Positions 1-11,363 of a DNA stretch of 11,363 bases are shown piece by piece. Every line of letters begins with the position of its first letter. The stretch's first letter is position 1. Made by a program: the position numbers and the translations under genes. This DNA comes from a virus (lineage: Duplodnaviria; Heunggongvirae; Uroviricota; Caudoviricetes), in the IMG/VR virus record IMGVR_UViG_2563366799_000008, one strand, 5' to 3'. Below the pieces are notes generated by a model. The model saw only the letters and a program-made list of their open reading frames with translations, did not search any database and was not told the DNA's origin.

Positions 1-742
<742 letters not shown>

Positions 743-831
743 ATGAGACTTCATATTATAACTATAATTATGTAAAAAAGGCTGGTATTTTATACCTTGA
801 GGAAAATAGATAAGAGGAATGAGGTTTGGTT

Positions 832-2223
832 ATGATGAATTATACTGATGAGTCAACTTTTCTTGAAAAGTACAAACCGTTTAGGAAGTTTTGGACAATT
901 TTATCACCTCATTATGTATCTTTAATGCATGCACTTGCCAAAATGATAAGGGGAGGGAATCCAATTCAAGAACTACCTTCCAATGATGAGGATTTTCTTG
1001 CAGAGTATGAAACCTGTCTCAAAAATTGGAAAGACTCACAAAAAATCATATCTTTTGAGATTATTATTCGGCTGAGAGATATAAAAAGATTGGAAACTGA
1101 AAAAAAAGAGCACCATCGAAACAAGGATAAAGAAAATAAAGAAAAGTGTATTGATGAAATAAGTTTAAAAAAATTTGAAATTCTTATTCTTCGCCGTTGT
1201 ATTGACTCAATAATTTGGAGCATTCTTGATGAAGAACACTCTAGTTTGCGGCGTTTACCTATTAATGCAAGCAATGACAATCTATCAGAAGATAACATAA
1301 TTGATTCTATGGTCGCAGCCGATCTTATCAACCAGGACAAACACTCCGTAGCGATTGTCTCTGACATGAGCACATTTGTTCATGTGGGAGATTTAGTCAC
1401 CTTTAATCTACTGGATGGCTTCCAGCTCGTGGAAGTTAAAACAGGTGAAAAGAATAATGAGCTTTATGAAGCTGCTGAATTTTCTGTTATCTCAGAATGT
1501 CCGCACTTTGAAGAAAACTTCATTAACAATATGCCTGATAATGATGTTAAGCAATTTAATCGCATAAAAAGGCAAATCATTCGTGGCATGAATGTTCTGG
1601 AGGCGATTAATACTGGCGAGGGCTTTGACAACTTTCATCAGTCTAAAGTTAAAATCAATGAGATAGATCATCCGTCTGAATTTTATACCCACCGCTTAGT
1701 TAAAATGTGGGAGATTATTCGCGGAGGAAAAAATTGGGCAATTGATACTATTGATGAATGTTTGTTCTTAGGTATGTACCGTGATTCTGAAATGGGCTTT
1801 GTTGCCTTCAATGGATGGATGGATAGTCTCGGTATAAAAAGCCCTGTTGTGAATATAAATGATTCATTCTTTGACCCTTTGTCTCGACCATTTATGAGTT
1901 TGCATCTGCCAACTGAAATGCTCTCCGATCTCATGTCGGGACAAATAATCATCGTCATGTGTTTTGACAATGAACTTTTTTTTCACCGTGCTAACAAAAC
2001 GTACCCGGGTTTATATCTCCTTAGCGATGCAGCAAGAACAAAGCAGCCATTAGAAAATATTCTTCGTGTTGGTTCACAAGGGATAGCTTCTTACGTAGAT
2101 GGGAATACCAGCTTTTTAGGTAATGGTATTGAATCCCGTATCCTTTTCGATCAGCAACGACCCGACAACATTATTGAGTGGAGCTATGCTAGAAGCGATC
2201 TCAAAAAGCAACATGAAGCATAA
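832..2223 (+). CDS. hypothetical protein with a PD-(D/E)xK nuclease-like motif; candidate defence effector
   Basis: 463-aa ORF; track start TTG 826, but ATG 832 is preceded by GAGG at 821-824. About 33% GC. Residues HVGDLVTF...QLVEVK (nt ~1390-1440) fit the D...ExK catalytic signature. Lys/Glu-rich predicted helical stretch at residues ~80-125. No Walker A motif seen. Confidence 0.75.
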   Translation: MMNYTDESTFLEKYKPFRKFWTILSPHYVSLMHALAKMIRGGNPIQELPSNDEDFLAEYETCLKNWKDSQKIISFEIIIRLRDIKRLETEKKEHHRNKDKENKEKCIDEISLKKFEILILRRCIDSIIWSILDEEHSSLRRLPINASNDNLSEDNIIDSMVAADLINQDKHSVAIVSDMSTFVHVGDLVTFNLLDGFQLVEVKTGEKNNELYEAAEFSVISECPHFEENFINNMPDNDVKQFNRIKRQIIRGMNVLEAINTGEGFDNFHQSKVKINEIDHPSEFYTHRLVKMWEIIRGGKNWAIDTIDECLFLGMYRDSEMGFVAFNGWMDSLGIKSPVVNINDSFFDPLSRPFMSLHLPTEMLSDLMSGQIIIVMCFDNELFFHRANKTYPGLYLLSDAARTKQPLENILRVGSQGIASYVDGNTSFLGNGIESRILFDQQRPDNIIEWSYARSDLKKQHEA

Positions 2224-2485
2224 GCCGTTGGATGGGATTTCCCATGAATTGCCATGGATAATCTAGACACTTCGAGCCGTTGATAATGTTGATTTTCGTA
2301 TTCTGTCGGTGGAGTATCCCGAAAGGTATAGAGCAAAACCTGGAGAAAACACACAGCATCCCATTTTAATCTTTAACTCTGACCTTCCATAATGTCCGCT
2401 GTTGGCACAAAGCGGACAACCACGCTAGCTCTACCCTGTGCCACAAAATGTCAATTTGCATCTGAACTAATGCACTTTAATCTCG

Positions 2486-2908
2486 TCACTTCAATAAATA
2501 CCGAACATCCCCCTGATAAAACGACAATATGCGCTGCATAACTTCGCTTTTACGACACTCAGTACAAATCATATTATGACGCCTGTCGTAACGACGTATT
2601 TCTCCATCAGGTAATGACCAGATAAGGTCCGGATCAACCGCAGATGGTTTCTTCAGCTTTGCCCTTGAGAGCTTTTTACGGGCATTTTGCCAGTCCTTAC
2701 GCGCCTGTTCAGACGGGAATAACCCGTAACCAGAGTTGTATACATCGCCACTGGCAACCAGCTCTCTGGCCAGAACGTTCATCAGATATTTTGTTGCCCC
2801 AGTTTTAGTTTCCAGTTGTCTTAACGTCTCGCGCCCACTCTGGCGTACGAGTTCAACAACCTGCCCTTTAATTTTTTCCCGCTCTTCTTGTGTAAAAACT
2901 TTTGCCAC
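2486..2908 (-). CDS. hypothetical protein, 140 aa, last gene of the rightward early operon
   Basis: GTG start at 2908 with AGGAGGG immediately upstream on the - strand (short spacer). Lys/Arg-rich C-terminal half. Codirectional with and just downstream of the O-like gene. No family recognised. Confidence 0.55.
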   Translation of the reverse strand: MAKVFTQEEREKIKGQVVELVRQSGRETLRQLETKTGATKYLMNVLARELVASGDVYNSGYGLFPSEQARKDWQNARKKLSRAKLKKPSAVDPDLIWSLPDGEIRRYDRRHNMICTECRKSEVMQRILSFYQGDVRYLLK

Positions 2909-2948
2909 AAGCCCTCCTGAAAATTACCTCATGACCAGAAATTAACAC

Positions 2949-4019
2949 TTACCCCCTGAAGCCCGGCGGAATTTCGTTATCCGGTTCAGAAATATGATTC
3001 ACACAACGCTGGTTGTTCGTGCCGCTTACCGGGAGCAACCAGGGGTTCTCAAAATTCCGGTCCGGTCCAAAAAACGTCGTCGCTCGCTGAACAAATTCCG
3101 TTCCCGTTTTCCCGGTAGCCGCCAAGTATCTTGCGTAACGCCTCACGCCATCCAGCATGGCCTCTGGTGGCACCCCCTCGCGTAATCTGGCCTTCCAGGC
3201 ACTGAAAGCGGATTTCTTCGGGTTTGCTCCGGCACGCAACGGGTACTCCCGCCAGACCTGTTCGAACACATCCGGATAATCCACTCGTCCCACAGACTGC
3301 CCGGTGTTTTCCGGGACTACCCGATCGGCTTCCCGCTGAATGGCGGAATCGGCTTCGGGCTGCTGCAGTTGGTGTGATTGCTCCGGCCTTGCGGTCATCA
3401 CCTGCTGCACAGCGCCCGAATCGGCTTTCAGCGCATACGCTGAATCGGCTTCCGGTGTCGTGCCTGCTGGCTGACCAAGATTGACGGTCTGAACATCCCC
3501 TGCCTGGTTCGTGGCGTTTTTTACGCCATGGACCATAGTGTTTTGATCTTCTTGATCTGTATCTTTATCTGTATCTTTATCTTTCGTGACTCGTCGTGAC
3601 ATGTGCGTGACATTTCGTGACGCGCCGTGACAATCGCCATTTTGTTCCCGCTTTCTTTCCCTCTCTCGCTGCGCCCTCTTGCGCTCTGCAGGAGATTTTG
3701 CGGTTTGCGAAATATTGCCGTTGTCCTCTTTAAGCACCTGGCGTTTTTCCCATCCAGTGATTAAATCACCATCAAGTACCCGCCCCTGCATCGTCTGCAA
3801 AATTGAATCAATTACCTCTTCTGTCACGTCGAGCGCACTTGCCAAATCTTCTGTCGTGACATCAATGTGACCTCGCGTGACATTTCGTGACGCGCTCACC
3901 AAGAGGTGGATATACACTGCCATCACTGTTGCAATTGGCTGCCCTGACACCCTGGCAATTGTTCGCCACTTAGGGTCATTTGGCATGTCATGCCATAATC
4001 TGAGCCAGGCGTTAGCCAT
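2949..4019 (-). CDS. phage replication initiation protein (lambda O-like / YdaU-like replisome organiser)
   Basis: Track ORF 2949-4025; ATG at 4019 preferred (MANAWLRLWHDMPNDPKW...). C-terminal FEQVWREYPLRAGANPKKSAFSAWKARL resembles prophage replication proteins. Internal iteron clusters and an AT-rich tandem repeat lie within the coding sequence, as in lambda O. Confidence 0.8.
   Translation of the reverse strand: MANAWLRLWHDMPNDPKWRTIARVSGQPIATVMAVYIHLLVSASRNVTRGHIDVTTEDLASALDVTEEVIDSILQTMQGRVLDGDLITGWEKRQVLKEDNGNISQTAKSPAERKRAQRERERKREQNGDCHGASRNVTHMSRRVTKDKDTDKDTDQEDQNTMVHGVKNATNQAGDVQTVNLGQPAGTTPEADSAYALKADSGAVQQVMTARPEQSHQLQQPEADSAIQREADRVVPENTGQSVGRVDYPDVFEQVWREYPLRAGANPKKSAFSAWKARLREGVPPEAMLDGVRRYARYLAATGKTGTEFVQRATTFFGPDRNFENPWLLPVSGTNNQRCVNHISEPDNEIPPGFRG
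3545..3584. repeat. AT-rich tandem hexamer repeat (ATCTKT units) inside the O-like gene
   Basis: atctgt atcttt atctgt atcttt atcttt at 3555-3584, preceded by gatctt. Encodes the KDKDTDKDTD linker on the - strand. Lies directly beside iteron cluster 1. Confidence 0.7.
3585..3631. repeat. iteron cluster 1: five CGTGAC direct repeats at ~10-11 bp spacing (putative replication origin)
   Basis: CGTGAC at 3585, 3595, 3606, 3616 and 3626. The 21-bp block gcgtgacatttcgtgacgcgc (3605-3625) recurs exactly at 3875-3895. Confidence 0.6.
3855..3895. repeat. iteron cluster 2: four (C/T)GTGAC direct repeats at ~10-11 bp spacing
   Basis: CGTGAC at 3855, TGTGAC at 3866, CGTGAC at 3876 and 3886. An inverted copy (gtcacg) sits at 3824-3829. 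Contains the exact 21-bp copy of 3605-3625. Confidence 0.6.
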
Positions 4020-4090
4020 ACTCACCTCTTTTGATACCGAATCTTTTTACTCATAAATTGCCGGAAGTGATCCGGTATGAATATTGCGAG

Positions 4091-4516
4091 TCAATGCACA
4101 GCCACAATATTTCCTGCAGGGCCACCACGATTCATCTGGTTGAAACCAGCGATCGCCACTGCGACAAAATCATCAGCGTCTCTCACCAGTCGTTCCCGCG
4201 TCTCCACTAGTTCCCGAAAATAGGCTGAGCTATGACTGCGCATTCGGGCCACCAGCAGAGGTGGCATTGCTTTTTCGATAGCTGGTAACAACGCCTGAAT
4301 TTTTTTAACCGCATCAGGGGTGTCTTTCTCCACCCAGCGGAAAATTTTCTGAGTATTGCGAGCCAGGGCTTCCGGATGGCTGTCGTCATACAGTTCCGGG
4401 AACGTCATTCCCAGCTCGAAATACGCTTTGGTAATTTTCGCAGCCGGTACTTTTTCGCCGTCCGGATGCGCCCAGGCATTCATCGCCATGCGGATGTGTT
4501 CATGCTTGATTTTCAT
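4091..4516 (-). CDS. YdaT-like protein (Rac-type prophage, cII-position gene)
   Basis: 141 aa, begins MKIKHEHI as I recall for Rac YdaT. GGGAG SD about 6 nt upstream. Its ATG overlaps the stop of the Cro-like gene (ATGA), suggesting translational coupling. Confidence 0.75.
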   Translation of the reverse strand: MKIKHEHIRMAMNAWAHPDGEKVPAAKITKAYFELGMTFPELYDDSHPEALARNTQKIFRWVEKDTPDAVKKIQALLPAIEKAMPPLLVARMRSHSSAYFRELVETRERLVRDADDFVAVAIAGFNQMNRGGPAGNIVAVH

Positions 4517-4767
4517 GAATCAACTCCCATCAGCTTTTTCGTAGTAGTTTTATTCCTGCCAATAGTTAAAATTGCATCGGCAGAAAATAATCCGTTTGAT
4601 GCAAGAGCGATTTTTTCAGCGTAATTTGTTTCGCCGGTATATTCTGTGCGAGGCAATTTTCCGTTATCCATCCATTTATAGATTGCTCTTTGGCTGACAC
4701 CACAAACGTCGGCCACAACAGCAACGCGAACAGTTTTGATTACATCTTCAAGTGTTTTCTGGTTCAT
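4513..4767 (-). CDS. Cro-like HTH regulator (YdaS-like)
   Basis: Track ORF 4513-4839; ATG at 4767 preferred because GAGGG sits just upstream and the product starts MNQKTLEDVIKT. HTH-like segment VADVCGVSQRAIYKWMDNGKLP. Divergent from the repressor gene. Confidence 0.7.
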   Translation of the reverse strand: MNQKTLEDVIKTVRVAVVADVCGVSQRAIYKWMDNGKLPRTEYTGETNYAEKIALASNGLFSADAILTIGRNKTTTKKLMGVDS

Positions 4768-4846
4768 ATCACCCTCACAATGTGAACTTTGAGTACATGC
4801 TATAACAGAACTGACAGTACATTCAAGAGCGAATATCATTGAACTT
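4768..4846. promoter_or_regulatory. divergent immunity promoter/operator region (OR-like)
   Basis: 79-bp gap between divergent cro-like and repressor genes. Direct AGTACAT repeats at 4792-4798 and 4816-4822. + strand candidate: -35 CTGACA 4811-4816, 17-bp spacer, -10 TATCAT 4834-4839, placing the start at or next to the repressor ATG. - strand candidate: -35 TTGAAT, -10 TATAGC (weak). Confidence 0.45.
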
Positions 4847-5266
4847 ATGGTTCATGAAGATAAAGCGCGTAAAGAGTTCGCCAGTAGGCTTGCGCTAGCC
4901 TGTGAAAACGCTGGTTATGAACAACATGGAAGGCAGGCAGAAATTGCCCGTCGAATGAAATTAACACCAAAAGCGGTTAGCAAATGGTTTAATGGCGAAA
5001 CAATTCCTCGCCGGGAGAAATTAAGGGAATTAGCAACACTAATAGGAACAACACCAACCTATCTTTTGGGAGAGGATACAGAAGAAAGTGGACAGGTACG
5101 TTTCTATCAGGAGTTAAATCCAAGACAAAAAATCATCATTGACCTTCTGGACGAGCTCCCTGACAGTGAGACAGATGAACTTTTAAAAACTCTTGAAGAG
5201 AAAAAACAGAAGTACAATGCAATTTACGAAGAGTTAGCACGAAAGAAAAAACAAAAAGCCTCTTAA
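4847..5266 (+). CDS. prophage repressor, XRE-family HTH (DicA/RacR-like CI analogue)
   Basis: 139 aa. N-terminal HTH (AEIARRMKLTPKAVSKWFNGETIP) and acidic/basic helical C-terminus. Divergent from the cro-like gene. No SD upstream, consistent with a leaderless transcript. Confidence 0.85.
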   Translation: MVHEDKARKEFASRLALACENAGYEQHGRQAEIARRMKLTPKAVSKWFNGETIPRREKLRELATLIGTTPTYLLGEDTEESGQVRFYQELNPRQKIIIDLLDELPDSETDELLKTLEEKKQKYNAIYEELARKKKQKAS

Positions 5267-5276
5267 ACCAGCATAA

Positions 5277-5314
5277 ATCCGGTAGCGCCTTCCTCCGGGT
5301 TTGTGCTTCACTTT
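5277..5314 (+). terminator. weak candidate intrinsic terminator after the repressor gene
   Basis: Arms ATCCGG (5277-5282) and CCGGGT (5295-5300) with a 12-nt loop, followed by T-rich TTGTGCTTCACTTT. Stem is short with one G-U pair. Confidence 0.25.
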
Positions 5315-5325
5315 ATCCCATCTCA

Positions 5326-5390
5326 TTTTTTTACATACAAAATGTACTAATAGTACTTTACAACAATGAACGCAAAGTACGTTATATGCC
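5326..5390. promoter_or_regulatory. OL/pL-like operator-promoter region for the leftward early operon
   Basis: Near-palindrome ATGTACTAATAGTACTT (5342-5358) and AGTAC at 5376-5380 share the AGTACAT half-site found between cro and repressor. TTTACA hexamers at 5330 and 5357. No clean -10 identified. Confidence 0.3.
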
Positions 5391-5563
5391 TGCCACCCAC
5401 CCCGCCCCACAGAATGCAGGGCAATACTTCGAGTTACCAGGCAGTGGTCAGGGGTTAAGTAGCCAGCCCGAGGCGTAAGAACATGACGGCAGGGTTCAAC
5501 TTTAATAACTATGCAGCAGGTTTTTGTTCCGCTACCCCGGCGTTAAGGGGAAATGAGGTCAGC

Positions 5564-5719
5564 ATGGATACTATCGATCTTGGCAACAGCGAATCTCCGG
5601 TATGTGGCGTGTTCCCCAACCAGGACGGTACGTTCACCGCGATGACGTATACCAAAAGCAAAACGTTTAAAACCGAAAATGGTGCCCGTCGCTGGCTGGA
5701 AAGAAACTCAGGTGAGTGA
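5564..5719 (+). CDS. small early-left protein, YdfA/YdaF-like (DUF1391-type)
   Basis: 51-aa product MDTIDLGNSESPVCGVFPNQDGTF... from the internal ATG at 5564 with GAGG 5 nt upstream. Size and position after the repressor match ydfA in Qin. Stop sits 1 nt before the next ATG. Confidence 0.65.
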   Translation: MDTIDLGNSESPVCGVFPNQDGTFTAMTYTKSKTFKTENGARRWLERNSGE

Positions 5720-5720
5720 T

Positions 5721-6296
5721 ATGGATTTCGACACAATCATGGAAAAGGCTTACGAAGAATACTTCGAAGGTCTTGCCGAAGGCGAAGAAGCTCTCAGCTT
5801 CAGTGAGTTTAAACAGGCACTCAGAATAAGAATGTGCTCTCACAATGACGCGGAGCACAAATATGAGAAGCAAAATCAGACCGCAGAAAATTTTGTTCTG
5901 GAACCCGGAGAAACGCTTTTCAAAATTCCCGTTACGTGCCCCATTTGCGGTTTTACATCAGAAGAACTTGACGACTCCTGTAACAATCAGGAAACAACCA
6001 AGTATGTCGAAGATGATACCGAGTGCGCACGAAGAACGATTATATCCACGAGTCCAAACTCCAGGACCAATAAATCTCACTTTGAGAGGGTGATTAATCC
6101 ACTCCCCCAAACCAATAAAAAAGATGCCGGAGGACAAAAAACCCAATGGAACAACGGGATATCTGTCAAAAAAAGACGTTCCATTAAAGACAAACAACGC
6201 AGCGCCAACAACTGTAAGCGCTTTATACCAGTAATCAATTTTCATGTTCTTAAGCGGATTTATTGGTGGTTGCGACATTGCTTAATGAATCCTTAA
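5721..6296 (+). CDS. hypothetical acidic protein with CPICGF Cys motif (YdfB/YdfC-position); 3' extent uncertain
   Basis: ATG 5721 with AGGTGA SD. The first ~100 aa look protein-like (acidic, CxxC...C...C). The C-terminal half is a basic low-complexity sequence that fully overlaps a hydrophobic - strand ORF. Confidence 0.4.
   Translation: MDFDTIMEKAYEEYFEGLAEGEEALSFSEFKQALRIRMCSHNDAEHKYEKQNQTAENFVLEPGETLFKIPVTCPICGFTSEELDDSCNNQETTKYVEDDTECARRTIISTSPNSRTNKSHFERVINPLPQTNKKDAGGQKTQWNNGISVKKRRSIKDKQRSANNCKRFIPVINFHVLKRIYWWLRHCLMNP
5958..6278 (-). CDS. possible small membrane protein, antisense to the early-left operon (SieB-like position)
   Basis: 106 aa with three hydrophobic helix-like segments. 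ATG with AAGGA about 11 nt upstream and an in-frame stop directly 5' of it. Opposite orientation mirrors sieB in Rac. Could instead be a shadow of the + strand ORF. Confidence 0.35.
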   Translation of the reverse strand: MSQPPINPLKNMKIDYWYKALTVVGAALFVFNGTSFFDRYPVVPLGFLSSGIFFIGLGEWINHPLKVRFIGPGVWTRGYNRSSCALGIIFDILGCFLIVTGVVKFF

Positions 6297-6555
6297 AACT
6301 GTGGTGATTTTAAGGATACCACCTCGCCTGACGTGGTTAAAAGCAGGCACACAACACGAAAGCGCACGGCGAAGTTCGTCTCACTGTACGGTGTCGTTAA
6401 ATTTAATTCGACCGTGCGCTTCCGGTTGTGGCAACCCGCGAAATGGCGCGGCGGTAAGTATGGCGGGGTTATTCCTTCCCCGTTGAGGACACCGAGTTGT
6501 CAGGTTGACCATACGCTTAAGTGACAACCCCGCTGCAACGCCCTCTGTTATCAAT

Positions 6556-6613
6556 TTTCTGGTGACGTTTGGCGGTATCAGTTTTACTCCGTGACTGCTC
6601 TGCCGCCGTTTTT
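6556..6613 (+). ncRNA. dicF: DicF small regulatory RNA (ftsZ-targeting, Hfq-dependent) with 3' T-tract
   Basis: tttctggtgacgtttggcggtatcagttttactccgtgactgctctgccgcc followed by gttttt matches the ~53-nt DicF sequence as I remember it. Lies about 170 bp upstream of dicB, as in Qin. Confidence 0.8.
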
Positions 6614-6782
6614 AAAGTGAATTTTGTGATGCGGTGAATGCGGCTAAGCGCACGCGGAACAGTTAAAACCAAAAACAGTGTTATGGGTGGATTCTCTGTA
6701 TCCGGCGTTAATTGTTAACTGGTTAACGTCACCTGGAGGCACCAGGCACTGCATCACAAAATTCATTGTTGAGGACGCGATA

Positions 6783-6971
6783 ATGAAAACGTTATTACCA
6801 AACGTTAATACGTCTGAAGGTTGTTTTGAAATTGGTGTCACTATCAGTAACCCTGTATTTACTGAAGATGCCATTAACAAGAGAAAACACGAACGGGAGC
6901 TATTAAATAAAATATGCATTCTTTCAATGTTGGCCCGTTTACGTCCGATACAAAAAGGATGCTGGCAATGA
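6783..6971 (+). CDS. dicB: cell-division inhibitor DicB (acts through MinC)
   Basis: 62-aa product MKTLLPNVNTSEGCFEIGVTISNPVFTEDAINKRK...KGCWQ is near-identical to K-12 DicB as I recall it. GAGGA SD 7 nt upstream. Track ORF 6678-6971 is an upstream extension. Confidence 0.85.
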   Translation: MKTLLPNVNTSEGCFEIGVTISNPVFTEDAINKRKHERELLNKICILSMLARLRPIQKGCWQ

Positions 6972-7159
6972 ATACAGCATTTGCACTTGTTCTGACAGTT
7001 TTTCTTGTTTCCGGAGAGCCAGTTGATATTGCAGTCAGTGTTCACAGGACAATGCAGGAGTGTGTGACTGCAGCAACCGAACAGAAAATTCCCGGTAACT
7101 GTTACCCGGTCGATAAAGTTATTCACCAGGATAATATCGAAATCCCGGCAGGTCTTTAA
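6968..7159 (+). CDS. ydfD: YdfD-like small protein with N-terminal hydrophobic segment (lysis-associated in Qin)
   Basis: 63-aa product MNTAFALVLTVFLVSGEPVDIAV... from ATG 6968, with AGGA 9 nt upstream. Start overlaps the dicB stop (ATGA). Directly follows dicB, as ydfD does in Qin. Confidence 0.75.
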   Translation: MNTAFALVLTVFLVSGEPVDIAVSVHRTMQECVTAATEQKIPGNCYPVDKVIHQDNIEIPAGL

Positions 7160-7252
7160 AACAGTTCCGTAATAAATATCCGGTTTCATTCTTATATGCC
7201 AGCAATGGCAGGGATTTGTTCATCCTTAAATCTGTCATGAGGTTAAAACAAA

Positions 7253-9724
7253 ATGAGTAAAGTCTTTATTTGCGCCGCTATTCCTGACGAACTGGCAACA
7301 AGGGAAGAAGGCGCTGTGGCTGTAGCCACAGCCATTGAAGCTGGCGACGAACGCCGTGCTCGAGCAAAATTTCACTGGCAGTTCCTGGAACATTATCCGG
7401 CTGCTCAGGACTGCGCTTATAAATTTATTGTCTGCGAGGATAAACCTGGCATACCCCGCCCTGCCCTCGATTCATGGGATGCTGAATATATGCAGGAAAA
7501 CCGCTGGGATGAGGAGTCTGCTTCTTTTGTCCCGGTTGAGACTGAATCCGATCCGATGAACGTCACTTTTGACAAGCTGGCCCCTGAAGTACAGAACGCT
7601 GTCATGGTTAAGTTCGACACATGTGAAAACATCACCGTTGATATGGTTATTAGCGCACAGGAATTGTTGCAGGAAGACATGGCAACATTCGACGGACATA
7701 TCGTTGAAGCGTTGATGAAAATGCCAGAAGTTAACGCCATGTATCCGGAGCTTAAGTTGCACGCCATTGGGTGGGTTAAGCATAAATGTATTCCTGGTGC
7801 TAAATGGCCCGAAATTCAGGCAGAGATGCGCATCTGGAAAAAACGTCGCGAAGGTGAACGCAAGGAAACCGGAAAATACACGTCTGTTGTTGATCTCGCC
7901 CGCGCCAGAGCCAATCAACAGTACACTGAAAATTCAACAGGAAAAATCAGCCCGGTCATTGCTGCCATTCATCGCGAATACAAGCAGACATGGAAAACAC
8001 TGGATGACGAACTGGCCTACGCTCTCTGGCCTGGTGATGTAGATGCCGGAAACATTGACGGCAGCATCCATCGCTGGGCAAAAAATGAAGTTATCGACAA
8101 CGACCGCGAAGACTGGAAGCGTATCTCGGCATCAATGCGCAAACAGCCTGATGCCCTTCGCTACGACCGCCAGACTATTTTTGGCCTTGTCCGTGAACGT
8201 CCGATCGACATTCACAAAGACCCTGTGGCACTGAACAAATACATTACTGAATACCTGACTACAAAGGGCGTGTTTGAAGATGAAGGAACAAATCAGAGCG
8301 CAACTGATACTCTCTCGTCGCCAGTACCAGAAACTGATGCAGTGGAAACGGCAATTCCAGACAACGAAAAAACCGAATGCAAAGTGGAAGTCGAACCATC
8401 TGTAGAACGTGAGGGGCCGTTCTACTTCCTCTTCACCGACAAGGATGGCGAAAAATACGGTCGCGCAAACAAACTTTCTGGTCTGGATAAGGCGCTGTCT
8501 GCTGGGGCTACTGAAATCACGAAAGAAGAATATTTCGCCCGCAAAAACGGTACATACTCAGGTTCACAACAAAATACTGGTGCATCTGACACGACCGCAC
8601 AACCAGGGTCAGTAAAAGTTACCGCTGACGAAGTAAACAAAATTATGCAGGCAGCCAATATCAGCCAGCCTGACGCCGATGAACTGCTTGCAGTATCACG
8701 TGGTGAATTTGTTGAAGGGATTAGCGACCCGAATGATCCGAAATGGGTTAAGGGGATCCAGACCCGCGATTCTGTGAACCAGAACCAGCAAGAAACGGAA
8801 CAGAACGACCAGAAAGCGGAACAAAACAGCCCAAATACGCAACAAAACGAGCCAGAAACAAAACAACCTGAACCAGTAGTGCAACAGGAACCGGAAAAGA
8901 TCTGCACCGCCTGCGGTCATAGCGGTGGCGGCAACTGCCCTGATTGTGGTGCGGTGATGGGTGACGCAACATACCAGGAAATATTCGATGGAGAGAATCA
9001 GCCTGAAGTTCAGGAAAATGATCCGGAGGAAATGGAAGGCACTGCGCATCAGCACAAGGAGAACACTGGCGGCAATCAGCATCACAATAGCGATAATGAA
9101 ACTGGCGAGACGGCAGATCACTCAATTAAGGTGAACGGTCATCACGAAATCACATCCACCAGCAGGACGTGTGACCATCTAATGATCGACCTTGAAACCA
9201 TGGGAAAAAATCCTGATGCCCCGATCATCTCAATAGGTGCAATATTTTTCGATCCGCAAACCGGAGATATGGGACCGGAATTTAGTAAGACTATCGATCT
9301 GGAAACTGCTGGCGGAGTCATTGATCGGGACACCATTAAATGGTGGCTTAAGCAATCACGCGAAGCGCAATCTGCCATTATGACCGATGAAATCCCGTTA
9401 GATGATGCACTGTTACAATTGCGGGAATTTATCGACGAAAACTCCGGTGAATTTTTTGTTCATGTCTGGGGAAATGGAGCCAACTTCGACAACACGATTT
9501 TGCGCCGTTCATACGAACGGCAGGGAATCCCCTGCCCGTGGCGTTACTACAACGATCGCGATGTACGCACAATCGTTGAGCTGGGGAAAGCCATAGACTT
9601 CGATGCCAGAACGGCTATTCCATTCGAAGGTGAGCGCCATAATGCACTTGATGACGCCCGTTACCAGGCAAAATACGTTTCAGCTATCTGGCAAAAACTG
9701 ATCCCGAGTCAGGCTGATTCTTAA
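7253..9724 (+). CDS. exodeoxyribonuclease VIII-like early protein (YdfE-like) with C-terminal DnaQ-like DEDDh 3'-5' exonuclease domain
   Basis: 823-aa ORF with GAGG SD. C-terminus carries Exo I (IDLETMG, D at nt 9188), Exo II (WGNGANFDNTIL) and Exo III (HNALDDARY) motifs. Middle has a Q/N/E-rich low-complexity linker (~8760-8900) and a CTACGHSGGGNCPDCG zinc-ribbon-like motif (~8910-8960). Confidence 0.9.
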   Translation: MSKVFICAAIPDELATREEGAVAVATAIEAGDERRARAKFHWQFLEHYPAAQDCAYKFIVCEDKPGIPRPALDSWDAEYMQENRWDEESASFVPVETESDPMNVTFDKLAPEVQNAVMVKFDTCENITVDMVISAQELLQEDMATFDGHIVEALMKMPEVNAMYPELKLHAIGWVKHKCIPGAKWPEIQAEMRIWKKRREGERKETGKYTSVVDLARARANQQYTENSTGKISPVIAAIHREYKQTWKTLDDELAYALWPGDVDAGNIDGSIHRWAKNEVIDNDREDWKRISASMRKQPDALRYDRQTIFGLVRERPIDIHKDPVALNKYITEYLTTKGVFEDEGTNQSATDTLSSPVPETDAVETAIPDNEKTECKVEVEPSVEREGPFYFLFTDKDGEKYGRANKLSGLDKALSAGATEITKEEYFARKNGTYSGSQQNTGASDTTAQPGSVKVTADEVNKIMQAANISQPDADELLAVSRGEFVEGISDPNDPKWVKGIQTRDSVNQNQQETEQNDQKAEQNSPNTQQNEPETKQPEPVVQQEPEKICTACGHSGGGNCPDCGAVMGDATYQEIFDGENQPEVQENDPEEMEGTAHQHKENTGGNQHHNSDNETGETADHSIKVNGHHEITSTSRTCDHLMIDLETMGKNPDAPIISIGAIFFDPQTGDMGPEFSKTIDLETAGGVIDRDTIKWWLKQSREAQSAIMTDEIPLDDALLQLREFIDENSGEFFVHVWGNGANFDNTILRRSYERQGIPCPWRYYNDRDVRTIVELGKAIDFDARTAIPFEGERHNALDDARYQAKYVSAIWQKLIPSQADS

Positions 9725-9735
9725 TGTTCAACTGT

Positions 9736-9767
9736 CGCCGGTTGTGACTGGTATTCTGCAACCGGCG
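9736..9767 (+). other. RNA hairpin between exonuclease and excisionase genes (9-bp GC-rich stem, 14-nt loop), no U-tract
   Basis: cgccggttg (9736-9744) pairs with caaccggcg (9759-9767). Followed by ctcgtctgatg, so it is not a canonical intrinsic terminator. Confidence 0.3.
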
Positions 9768-9796
9768 CTCGTCTGATGTAAGAGATAAAGAAATCG

Positions 9797-10048
9797 ATGA
9801 GCGAAGTAATCATGATTGTCTCTCCCGGCAAATGGGTATCCGAAGAGCAGTTAATTGCGCTGAAAGGAATAAAAAAAGGTACGTTAAAAAAGGCCCGGGA
9901 AAAATCGTTTATGGAAGGAAGGGAATATAAGCATGTCGCTCATGACGGTATGCCATGGGATAACAGTCCATGCTTTTACAACCTGGAAGAAATTGATCGC
10001 TGGATTGAGCGCCAGGCATCAGCAAGACCAAGACGTCATCTTACTTGA
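9797..10048 (+). CDS. xis: excisionase-like protein (Xis)
   Basis: 83-aa basic protein immediately upstream of and codirectional with the integrase, with a 34-bp gap. Weak SD. Position and size are typical of lambdoid xis. Confidence 0.65.
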   Translation: MSEVIMIVSPGKWVSEEQLIALKGIKKGTLKKAREKSFMEGREYKHVAHDGMPWDNSPCFYNLEEIDRWIERQASARPRRHLT

Positions 10049-10082
10049 CTAAAAGCCACACTAACTAATGAGAGAAGTTGAA

Positions 10083-11363
10083 ATGAAATATCCGACAGGC
10101 GTGGAAAACCATGGAGGGAAATTACGTATCTGGTTTGTTTATAAAGGCGTAAGAGTCAGGGAAAACCTGGGGGTTCCTGACACAGCAAAAAACAGGCGCG
10201 TTGCAGGTGAGTTACGCGCCTCTGTTTGTTACGCAATAAAAACTGGTGTTTTCGACTATGCAAAACAGTTTCCCTCCTCACGCAATCTGGAAAAATTTGG
10301 TGAGGCCCGACAAGATTTAACCATAAAAGAACTGGCTGAAAAATTTCTGGCACTGAAAGAAACTGAAGTCGCAAAAACATCACTCAACACATACCGTGCC
10401 GTCATCAAAAATATCCTGAGCATAATCGGTGAAAAAAATCTTGCCTCATCGATTAATAAAGAAAAATTACTGGAGGTTCGTAAAGAGCTACTGACTGGAT
10501 ACCAGATCCCCAAAAGTAACTATATTGTTACACAACCAGGGAGATCGGCTGTAACTGTAAATAATTACATGACAAATCTTAACGCCGTGTTCCAGTTTGG
10601 TGTTGATAACGGTTACCTGGCAGATAACCCGTTTAAGGGGATCTCGCCATTAAAGGAATCAAGAACCATTCCGGATCCTCTTTCGCGGGAGGAATTTATC
10701 CGTCTTATCGATGCGTGCAGAAATCAGCAAGCAAAAAATTTATGGTGTGTTTCTGTTTATACTGGCGTTCGCCCTGGTGAGCTGTGTGCACTTGGATGGG
10801 AGGACATAGATCTGAAAAATGGAACAATGATGATCAGGAGAAATTTAGCAAAAGACCGTTTCACGGTACCAAAAACACAGGCGGGAACCAATCGGGTCAT
10901 TCATCTTATTAAGCCAGCAATCGACGCTCTCCGGAGTCAGATGACATTAACGAGACTGAGCAAAGAGCATATCATTGATGTTCACCTCAGAGAGTATGGC
11001 AGAACAGAAAAACAAAAATGCACCTTTGTTTTTCAACCTGAAGTGTCAGCGAGAGTAAAAAATTATGGTGACCATTTTACCGTTGACTCAATAAGGCAGA
11101 TGTGGGACGCAGCGATAAAACGTGCCGGACTCCGCCATCGAAAATCATATCAGTCGAGACATACTTATGCCTGCTGGTCGCTGACAGCTGGTGCTAACCC
11201 GGCATTTATAGCAAACCAGATGGGCCATGCAGATGCGCAAATGGTATTTAAGGTATACGGAAAATGGATGTCTGAAAACAATAATGCACAGGTAGCTTTG
11301 TTAAATACACAGTTAAGCGAGTTTGCCCCAACCATGCCCCATAACGAAGCAATGAAAAATTAA
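10083..11363 (+). CDS. int: phage tyrosine integrase (IntR/lambdoid family)
   Basis: Track ORF starts 10068; ATG 10083 (MKYPTGVENHGGKLRIWF) aligns with the N-terminus of IntR-type integrases. Catalytic-region motifs GVRPGELCALGWEDID and SRHTYACW...GHADAQMVFKVYGKW. Stop is at the window end. Confidence 0.9.
   Translation: MKYPTGVENHGGKLRIWFVYKGVRVRENLGVPDTAKNRRVAGELRASVCYAIKTGVFDYAKQFPSSRNLEKFGEARQDLTIKELAEKFLALKETEVAKTSLNTYRAVIKNILSIIGEKNLASSINKEKLLEVRKELLTGYQIPKSNYIVTQPGRSAVTVNNYMTNLNAVFQFGVDNGYLADNPFKGISPLKESRTIPDPLSREEFIRLIDACRNQQAKNLWCVSVYTGVRPGELCALGWEDIDLKNGTMMIRRNLAKDRFTVPKTQAGTNRVIHLIKPAIDALRSQMTLTRLSKEHIIDVHLREYGRTEKQKCTFVFQPEVSARVKNYGDHFTVDSIRQMWDAAIKRAGLRHRKSYQSRHTYACWSLTAGANPAFIANQMGHADAQMVFKVYGKWMSENNNAQVALLNTQLSEFAPTMPHNEAMKN

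Follow-up and report, generated by a model that had tools for sequence, protein, structure and literature searches.

Lysis/lysogeny region of a probable Tritos-like, Qin-family lambdoid prophage with a YdaT-type CII analogue

The viral DNA analyzed here (IMG/VR record IMGVR_UViG_2563366799_000008; 11,363 nucleotides, hereafter the window) very probably harbors, at positions 4091–5392, the lysis/lysogeny region of a lambdoid prophage of the Qin family that resembles Tritos, in which the Cro analogue and YdaT are not toxins and repressor loss would harm the host through prophage derepression. The prophage adjoins rspB, the Qin site, and its remainder lies outside the window. The immunity region is already known, its exact proteins being those of Tritos, an active phage described before. 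Table 1 lists the features.

Table 1. Genes and predicted regulatory sites in and around the immunity region (window coordinates).
Feature	Position	Strand	Basis or remark
DUF977/Ren-like gene	2486..2908	-	Pfam DUF977; phrog_142
Replication initiation/replisome-organiser gene	2949..4025	-	phrog_3729, E 3e-257; RefSeq 'phage replisome organizer'
ydaT-type gene	4091..4516	-	141 aa
YdaT-box TTGATT-N6-AATCAA	4506..4523		exact match; spans cro stop/ydaT start
Cro analogue gene	4513..4767	-	84 aa
OR1 TGAAC-N5-GTACA, predicted	4783..4797		motif scan; at -10/+1 of predicted PR
Predicted PR (cro-ydaT-replication) TTGAAT-18-TAGCAT	4797..4826	-	8/12; manual reading, inference only
OR2 AGAAC-N5-GTACA, predicted	4807..4821		24 bp from OR1; in predicted PR spacer, overlaps -35 of repressor promoter
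Predicted repressor promoter (PRM analogue) CTGACA-17-TATCAT	4811..4839	+	promoter scan, 10/12
OR3 TGAAC-N5-GTTCA, predicted	4840..4854		perfect palindrome over repressor start codon; predicted autoregulation site
Immunity repressor gene	4847..5266	+	139 aa
OL-a TGTAC-N5-GTACT, predicted	5343..5357		motif scan; half-sites largely conserved, 5-nt spacer varies between copies
PL analogue (ydfA-dicF-dicB-ydfD-exo-xis-int)	5357..5385	+	TTTACA-17-CATTAT in relatives; -10 here CGTTAT
OL-b TGAAC-N5-GTACG, predicted	5367..5381		24 bp from OL-a; GTACA in every other copy
ydfA (DUF1391), first PL-operon gene	5564..5719	+	Pfam DUF1391; RefSeq
DicF sRNA (inhibits ftsZ translation)	6557..6608	+	Rfam RF00039, 72.5 bits, gathering score 48
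dicB, cell-division inhibitor	6783..6971	+	RefSeq annotation of 99.96%-identical locus
ydfD, lysis protein	6968..7159	+	RefSeq annotation; function from PMC10448788

All three open reading frames of the region coincide with RefSeq CDS calls in E. coli G3/10, whose prophage is 99.96% identical, confirming the layout proposed in an earlier sequence-only reading: a repressor divergent from cro-like and YdaT-like genes that are coupled by an ATGA overlap. The + strand TCAT at 4513–4516 reads ATGA on the - strand, such that the ATG of the 141-aa frame overlaps the TGA of the 84-aa frame. The latter is preceded by GAGGGTG at its start at 4767; an alternative, longer frame (108 aa, start 4839) begins inside the promoter/operator region. 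A 79-bp intergenic region (4768–4846) separates the repressor and cro. The gene order is that of lambda (int-xis-exo…dicB-dicF-ydfA, repressor, cro-ydaT-replication). On the PR transcript, the replisome-organiser gene lies downstream of ydaT, and the DUF977/Ren-like gene is the final gene ahead of a moron insert. The locus has the layout of a lambdoid immunity region, with divergent repressor and cro genes, predicted operators at both of their promoters and at PL, a CII analogue, and replication genes.

Tritos (OV696610.1), which resides in E. coli LF82 as prophage 3, forms virions and plaques (PMC9928086). Its immunity genes, TRITO_33-35, include those annotated CI and Cro, and 97.9% nucleotide identity to the window extends over 4091–5400. 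The repressor and the Cro analogue are each 100% identical to Tritos CI and Cro, and the YdaT-like protein is 99% identical to TRITO_35. The replication genes, ydfA, DicF, dicB, ydfD, exo, xis, and int are also common to both. The differences are a longer Cro start and the label 'Rha family regulator' for YdaT in the Tritos annotation, the morons beyond the replication genes, and position 5381 in the PL -10, which is A in Tritos and G in the window.

The repressor has an N-terminal XRE-type helix-turn-helix (HTH), with Pfam matches to HTH families only (HTH_3), and lacks the S24 peptidase domain. It aligns with DicA at 29% identity over 112 aa (E 5e-15; residues 30–137, including the C-terminal LPDSE…YEEL region) and with a PaaR-type protein at 27% identity, again including the C-terminal region. 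This combination of an XRE HTH and a homologous C-terminal helical domain without an S24 peptidase is the DicA/PaaR-type architecture. The RacR-type identity suggested by the earlier reading is rejected, since BLASTP aligns only 33 aa of the HTH with RacR (36% identity, pairwise E 1e-4) and the Pfam profiles differ (HTH_3 for the repressor versus a weak HTH_17 for RacR). A sequence search of the PDB matched only the HTH of P22 C2, and PADLOC returned only HTH-level matches for the repressor and the Cro analogue.

Because the S24 peptidase domain is absent, the repressor is predicted to be incapable of self-cleavage upon RecA signalling, so that induction would be either spontaneous (bistable) or driven by an antirepressor. 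Ciprofloxacin did not induce Tritos. No homologue of the Rem-type antirepressor, a known DicA antagonist, was found in those sections of the loci from G3/10, Tritos, and O157 that were examined.

The Cro analogue is an HTH_17/AlpA-like protein, with a weak Pfam HTH_17 match and assignment to phrog_35 'transcriptional repressor' (E 6.8e-14). It had been likened to YdaS, an identity that does not hold: the YdaS profile PF15943 gives no match for the 84-aa protein at E <= 0.01, while the positive controls, YdaS of K-12 and YdaS of a PaaR-type O157:H7 prophage, score 107.7 and 38.8 bits, respectively, and BLASTP against YdaS is not significant (E 0.075). Homology to DicC is likewise rejected, as no alignment was obtained. 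A PDB sequence search with this protein found nothing.

The 141-aa protein, in contrast, was correctly recognized as YdaT-like. It matches Pfam PF06254 (YdaT) at 39.1 bits, above the curated cut-off of 21, and phrog_163 'CII-like transcriptional activator' (E 3.5e-45), and it aligns end-to-end with K-12 YdaT at 33% identity (E 6e-15), well beyond chance. Full-length homology extends to characterized YdaTs, with 97% identity to PDB 3C4R and ~87% to 8BT1, the CP-933P YdaT. By homology, it is a CII analogue, a tetrameric POU-type HTH activator. Judged by sequence, it is the only gene within the cassette plus ydaT that is homologous to the Rac module.

The Pfam name 'YdaT_toxin', the RefSeq name 'toxin YdaT family protein', and the small, overlapping two-gene layout all evoke a type II toxin–antitoxin pair in which YdaT would be the 'toxin' and the Cro-like protein the antitoxin. 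The toxin names, however, were assigned by a prediction algorithm. YdaT itself binds DNA as a tetramer whose structure is solved and whose operator is defined (PMC9986795), and toxin–antitoxin behavior was not seen in experiments on homologues (PMC8630535) or, as relayed in PMC5917428, by Christensen-Dalsgaard 2010. The gene upstream of ydaT here is outside the YdaS family, and PADLOC has no match for YdaT. The toxin–antitoxin assignment is thus largely refuted already and has a negligible probability.

The assignment of YdaT as a DNA-binding regulator is consistent with the YdaT-box, which has its sole exact match in the window (0.09 expected) at the start of ydaT, with the ydaT ATG within the spacer of the box. 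Each of the 9 ydaT-bearing loci examined has a single such box, positioned where ydaT begins. An identical box has been footprinted for the CP-933P YdaT (PMC9986795), and the box of the Rac YdaT has also been footprinted (PMC11879457). Following infection or derepression, YdaT would bind this box over its own start codon and would then switch on a reverse promoter inside cro for repressor synthesis. No reverse, PRE-type + strand promoter inside cro reached the promoter-scan threshold, as is expected of an activator-dependent promoter.

A scan of the window with the operator motif TGWAC-N5-GTWCA gave 8 matches versus 1.08 expected, 5/8 of which are at OR and OL. The motifs occupy equivalent positions in four further copies of the cassette, in which the half-sites are largely kept and the spacers vary; the exception is OL-a of one copy (L006), which has more than the one mismatch allowed by the scan. 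The four heteroimmune loci examined lack these motifs, and no third OL operator reached the scan threshold. The repressor would bind these 15-bp operators, three at OR and two at OL. Occupancy of OR would close the rightward promoter, which serves cro and ydaT, then the replication genes and, more distally, late genes; occupancy of OL would close the leftward one, which serves ydfA, dicF, dicB, ydfD, exonuclease, xis, and int.

No strong PR reached the promoter-scan threshold, and the manually assigned PR is weak. On the opposite strand, the repressor ATG at 4847 lies ~7 nt past the predicted -10 and lacks a Shine-Dalgarno sequence, suggesting that the repressor mRNA is probably leaderless, as is the case for cI and paaR2 (PMC8630535).

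The arrangement shares with lambda three OR sites, the 24-bp OR1–OR2 spacing, an OL at the leftward promoter, an activator in the cII position followed by replication genes, and an immunity cassette that forms a mosaic unit. It differs in that sequence homology to cI, Cro, and CII is absent, the repressor has no RecA-cleavable domain, and only two OL sites are recognizable. CP-933P is akin in its YdaT and identical YdaT-box, its PaaR-like repressor architecture, and the downstream ydfA-dicB backbone, and the YdaT of a sister PaaR-type prophage is 92% identical to the one here. The leaderless start, predicted here, has been demonstrated for CP-933P paaR2 (PMC8630535). In contrast to the window, CP-933P has a paaA-parE toxin–antitoxin pair after the repressor; its Cro is different, and its operators are 18-bp palindromes with the half-site consensus GTTTAGTAA, whereas those predicted here are 15 bp.

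K-12 Qin shares the site beside rspB and the PL operon (ydfA, dicF, dicB, and ydfD at 96–97.5% nucleotide identity; 97.5% for the dicF-dicB-ydfD segment). Its DicA is likewise a two-domain, non-cleavable repressor, similar across both domains, and the regulatory logic, in which a repressor silences division inhibitors (PMC10448788), would also be alike. Qin nevertheless has another immunity specificity and a DicC unrelated to the Cro analogue, and it no longer carries ydaT, replication genes, the exonuclease gene, or a functional integrase. Rac shares the gene order, the divergent layout, a homologous YdaT, and a YdaT-box over the ydaT ATG that agrees at 17/18 positions. H56 of the Rac YdaT is replaced by F, and in Rac a gap of 22 nt lies between ydaS and ydaT, while cro and ydaT overlap here.

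The likeness to Rac led the sequence-only reading to propose a RacR/YdaS/YdaT-type toxin–repressor module, in which the repressor is addictive because the Cro-like and YdaT-like proteins are toxic upon derepression. A full-length YdaT homologue with a matching YdaT-box is indeed present, racR is essential and the Rac YdaT toxic (PMC5700377, PMC5700373, PMC11014345), prolonged over-expression of CP-933P PaaR2 or YdaS slows growth (PMC8630535), and an identical immunity cassette occupies the place of RacR beside a Rac-type YdaT in 618 genomes. However, the repressor and the Cro analogue are not RacR and YdaS homologues. Only YdaT is toxic in Rac, with YdaS being non-toxic (PMC11014345), and it acts via the host rcsA promoter (PMC11014345, PMC11879457), a toxicity not common to the CP-933P-type clade. 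By sequence, the YdaT here belongs to that clade, and the CP-933P YdaT showed no toxicity (PMC8630535) and was unable to activate rcsA (PMC11879457). The CP-933P protein is ~87% identical to the YdaT here, the Rac YdaT 33%, and the Rac cause of addiction probably does not transfer. A letter by Jobling further argues that phage regulators are not to be classed as toxins just because they are toxic when expressed ectopically (PMC5917428). A toxin–repressor module is thus improbable; on the best explanation, the Cro analogue and YdaT are regulators rather than toxins.

The other part of that proposal, the need of the host for the repressor, fares better. The repressor is probably required in the lysogen, as suggested by its identity to Tritos CI and by CRISPRi of the LF82 prophage repressors, the knock-down of which is described collectively, in a preprint, as detrimental 'across conditions and phages' (bioRxiv 10.64898/2026.01.05.697630). 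Expression of Tritos CI in the lysogen is 24-fold above local background (PMC9928086). The reason for this need is likely ordinary prophage derepression and not toxic small neighbors. The better-documented toxic cargo under the repressor is the downstream dicF-dicB-ydfD segment, together with the PR-driven replication and lysis program; DicA keeps dicBp repressed, and expressing dicBF is toxic (PMC10448788). Upon repressor loss, PR would drive replication and lysis while PL would drive dicF, dicB, and ydfD, and the host would be harmed by a DicB/DicF division block, YdfD, runaway replication, and lysis.

The immunity cassette is exchanged as a mosaic unit between related phages. The repressor occurs in 1047/5426 complete E. 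coli genomes and cro plus OR in 1045/5426, a prevalence of 19%, on both Rac-like and Qin-like backbones. The cassette is joined to a Rac-type ydaT in 618 genomes, where it replaces racR-ydaS beside a YdaT 94% identical to that of K-12, and to a Tritos-type ydaT in 410. Homology to three heteroimmune relatives ends on the left at 4522–4527 and resumes on the right at 5393–5395; with breaks at ~4524 and ~5392, the swapped unit is exactly cro, OR, the repressor, and OL/PL. No genome was found in which the repressor is lost but cro-ydaT is expressed, all 1047 repressor matches being full length. In the single natural repressor loss that was inspected, the deletion extends to OR, the 5′ part of cro, and the entire PL operon, and because the promoters and the PL operon were removed as well, this deletion neither supports nor refutes addiction.

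The repressor lies upstream of ydfA-dicF-dicB, and the predicted OL operators flank the -35 of the PL-type promoter and fill its spacer. PL is detected by the promoter scan in G3/10 but not in the window, where an A-to-G change at 5381 destroys the -10 hexamer and alters OL-b. The G is private, being shared by no complete genome. It is one of five differences from the closest relative, the G3/10 prophage, which carries a nohA pseudogene; at a distance of 45 nt from it there is another private change. In addition, IS5 interrupts the neighboring abiH in this genome. The 5381 change may have silenced PL here, weakening the dicBF argument for this strain, and it is conceivable, albeit doubtful, that the prophage is being tamed.

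These two lesions, together with the location at the Qin site, where the K-12 prophage is defective, might also point to a decayed, non-functional immunity remnant in a cryptic prophage. Such decay is very unlikely in view of the three intact open reading frames, two of which encode proteins that an active phage carries in identical form, the intact and conserved predicted operators, YdaT-box, and PRM, and the full-length integrase, excisionase, and exonuclease genes, unlike those of K-12 Qin.

Assigning this locus to lambdoid immunity serves mainly as a correction: both the precedent of Rac and the label 'toxin YdaT' suggest a toxin–repressor module, while the evidence points to ordinary lambdoid immunity. 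For an uncharacterized immunity type, concrete predicted sites are available in the operator motif and at the junction that bears the YdaT-box. The private change in the PL -10 may offer a small example of how the toxic arm of a prophage can be silenced. If PL is dead, dicF, dicB, ydfD, xis, and int would no longer be inducible, and the hold of the repressor would rest on the PR arm alone. Were taming indeed under way, this prophage would be a naturally occurring stage on the way from an active phage of the Tritos type to a cryptic element of the Qin type.

The window corresponds to the early region of a lambdoid prophage of the Qin family, adjoining rspB. Its leftward arm carries ydfA, DicF (Rfam, 72.5 bits), dicB, ydfD, a full-length exonuclease, xis, and int, and its rightward arm carries the replication genes. 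The sequence-only reading described a repressor divergent from Cro-like and YdaT-like genes, and these three ORFs are confirmed in place, with an ATGA in which the start codon of the 141-aa ORF overlaps the TGA stop of the 84-aa ORF. The prophage of E. coli G3/10 matches window 201-11363 at 99.96% identity, and RefSeq annotates the equivalent CDSs there. Escherichia phage Tritos, a phage of E. coli LF82, has an identical repressor and Cro (100%) and a 99% identical YdaT in the phage database; on these identities, the immunity cassette is assigned to Tritos. Tritos forms virions and plaques and expresses CI in the lysogen (PMC9928086). Elements of this kind have been described before, and this phage immunity region itself is already deposited and annotated.

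Features of the immunity region and its surroundings
Feature	Coordinates	Strand	Basis
End of IS5 element	1 to about 200
IS5 end plus truncated abiH	1-742
465-aa ORF	826-2223	+
YdaT ORF, 141 aa	4091-4516	-	ORF call
Left recombination joint	4493-4527
YdaT-box, TTGATT-N6-AATCAA	4506-4523
ATGA overlap	4513-4516	-
Cro-like ORF, 84 aa	4513-4767	-	ORF call
Mosaic boundaries	about 4524 and 5392		BLAST vs heteroimmune relatives
Putative operators, divergent intergenic region (OR)	4783-97, 4807-21, 4840-54		motif matches
Promoter-like site, CTGACA-17-TATCAT	4811-4839		promoter scan
Repressor ORF, 139 aa	4847-5266	+	ORF call
Putative operators directly after repressor gene (OL)	5343-57, 5367-81		motif matches
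205-aa ORF	5679-6296	+
Segment with variable presence	5819-6338
106-aa ORF	5958-6278	antisense

The YdaT-like gene encodes a genuine YdaT, as judged by Pfam PF06254 (39.1 bits; cut-off 21), phrog_163 ("CII-like transcriptional activator", E 3.5e-45), and end-to-end alignment with K-12 Rac YdaT (33% identity). The protein is 97% identical to PDB 3C4R, 92% identical to YdaT of a PaaR-type O157:H7 prophage, and about 87% identical to the crystallized YdaT of the O157:H7 prophage CP-933P (8BT1). By sequence, it is far closer to this CP-933P/PaaR-type clade than to Rac YdaT. The YdaT-box is exact and is the sole match in the window (0.09 expected). It has been footprinted for YdaT of CP-933P (PMC9986795) and of Rac, where the ydaT ATG likewise lies in the spacer (PMC11879457). 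Each of the nine loci compared that have ydaT carries a single box, placed at the ydaT start; K-12 Qin, without ydaT, has no box.

The repressor is not of the RacR type that had been proposed. RacR aligns with it only within a 33-aa HTH stretch. The alignments with Qin DicA (29% identity over 112 aa, E 5e-15) and with a PaaR-type repressor (27%) span both domains. XRE-type HTH models are its sole Pfam matches, and no S24 peptidase is found by Pfam. The failure of ciprofloxacin to induce Tritos (PMC9928086) agrees with a repressor that lacks a cleavage domain. The 84-aa protein, the Cro-like member of the proposed module, gives no Pfam match to PF15943 (YdaS), a model that scores 107.7 bits with K-12 YdaS and 38.8 bits with YdaS of the PaaR-type O157:H7 prophage; BLASTP against YdaS and DicC yields nothing significant. 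It does not belong to the YdaS family. It shows a weak HTH_17 (AlpA-like) signal and matches phrog_35 ("transcriptional repressor"). The proposed RacR/YdaS/YdaT module is supported in part: the YdaT homology stands; the RacR-like repressor and the YdaS-family neighbor do not.

The predicted operators share a 15-bp motif, TGWAC-N5-GTWCA, with eight matches in the window against 1.08 expected. The OR and OL sites lie at identical positions in four other cassette copies (G3/10, Tritos, an O157:H7 Rac-like prophage, and phage 666R9), with half-sites largely conserved and spacers variable; OL-a of the O157:H7 locus falls beyond the one-mismatch threshold. None of the heteroimmune loci compared contains such sites. 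The promoter-like site ends 7 nt ahead of the repressor ATG, which is preceded by no Shine-Dalgarno sequence, suggesting that the repressor mRNA is leaderless, as shown for lambda cI and paaR2 (PMC8630535). PR, the promoter of the cro-ydaT-replication arm, is a weak manual call (TTGAAT-18-TAGCAT, minus strand).

A standard immunity switch is the best-supported reading. The repressor would block PR from OR1/OR2, regulate itself from OR3, and block PL, the promoter of the opposite arm, from OL; Cro would oppose it, and YdaT would play the role of CII from the YdaT-box. Host harm on repressor loss would then arise via DicB, DicF, and YdfD, as well as replication and late functions. DicA represses dicBp, and dicBF expression inhibits growth (PMC10448788). 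A CRISPRi screen describes knock-down of the LF82 prophage repressors as detrimental "across conditions and phages" (bioRxiv 10.64898/2026.01.05.697630). The sequence-only reading instead took Cro and YdaT as potentially toxic in themselves, so that the repressor may be addictive. In Rac, racR is essential and its depletion derepresses ydaS-ydaT (PMC5700377, PMC5700373), and YdaT alone is toxic, independently of Rac, via activation of host rcsA (PMC11014345, PMC11879457). CP-933P YdaT cross-activates the YdaT-box promoter but cannot activate rcsA (PMC11879457), and no toxicity was seen for it (PMC8630535). The mechanism of intrinsically toxic Cro and YdaT is possible but disfavored for this YdaT clade.

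At one comparison locus (L007, NZ_CP137696.1 2550042-2551510), an IS1-associated deletion has taken out OR and the repressor together with the cro 5′ end and the entire PL operon, reaching the 3′ part of the exonuclease gene; an identical ydaT and the replication genes are retained, intact but without a promoter. This one natural repressor deletion inspected is compatible with the immunity switch and with toxic neighbors alike.

After base 200, the window differs from G3/10 at five positions, two of which (5336 and 5381) fall in the OL/PL control region. Neither change occurs in any complete E. coli genome that carries this region (1010 genomes; best identity 98.5%). With A5381G, the PL −10 reads CGTTAT in place of CATTAT, and the last base of OL-b, which is conserved elsewhere, is G and not A. 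In G3/10 the promoter scan calls TTTACA-17-CATTAT; at the equivalent place in the window it calls no promoter. A5381G could represent a sequencing error or a promoter-down allele of dicF-dicB-ydfD, the arm with the known toxic genes; PL is possibly silenced in this genome.

Several neighboring features were also observed. The IS5 element is inserted in abiH, leaving the C-terminal 203 aa (PADLOC AbiH profile positions 149-316 of 343); G3/10 abiH is intact (909 nt). The adjoining 465-aa ORF occupies the moron slot, with hokD on one side and the replication genes on the other. It has no match in Pfam, PHROGs, or PADLOC and may be an AbiH partner or a separate defense gene; in Tritos, another hypothetical gene of 1335 nt stands at this place. 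In the 205-aa ORF, the YdfB N-terminus is followed by a unique extension that contains a CPICG...C motif, and the full length of the ORF matches phrog_35040. RefSeq labels ydfB "incomplete" at this locus. The variable segment is absent from K-12 Qin and two heteroimmune relatives. The 106-aa ORF is hydrophobic.

The mosaic boundaries make the exchangeable unit exactly cro, OR, repressor, and OL/PL, with its left joint at the YdaT-box. In the window and the comparison loci L002 and L004-L009, the left joint comprises the box and the first ydaT codons. Across these loci the 18-bp box varies by no more than one mismatch and connects two YdaT clades with four different immunity types. The ydaT allele family of the window occurs in 3036 of 5426 complete E. 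coli genomes and is found beside at least four immunity types, among them one with a LexA-family repressor and one with a PaaR repressor plus a ParE toxin-antitoxin pair. With as many as seven copies in a genome, prophages that share a host are likely to cross-talk; for the YdaT proteins of Rac and CP-933P, cross-activation has been published (PMC11879457).

Among the same 5426 genomes, the repressor gene is found in 1047 and cro with OR in 1045; the cassette is joined to Tritos-type ydaT in 410 and to Rac-type ydaT in 618. In the latter pairing, YdaT shares 94% identity with its K-12 counterpart, and the cassette stands in for racR-ydaS of Rac-like prophages. At one such locus (L006, E. coli O157:H7 ATCC 35150, NZ_CP038405.1 2786343-2787515), the same repressor (99% identical) and Cro take the racR-ydaS position; kilR and recE are close by, and the adjacent YdaT has 94% identity to the K-12 protein that is toxic. 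The toxic-neighbor mechanism would be more apt for these 618 genomes, in which a Rac-type YdaT is under the control of this repressor, and loci of the L006 type would offer a better test of the hypothesis.
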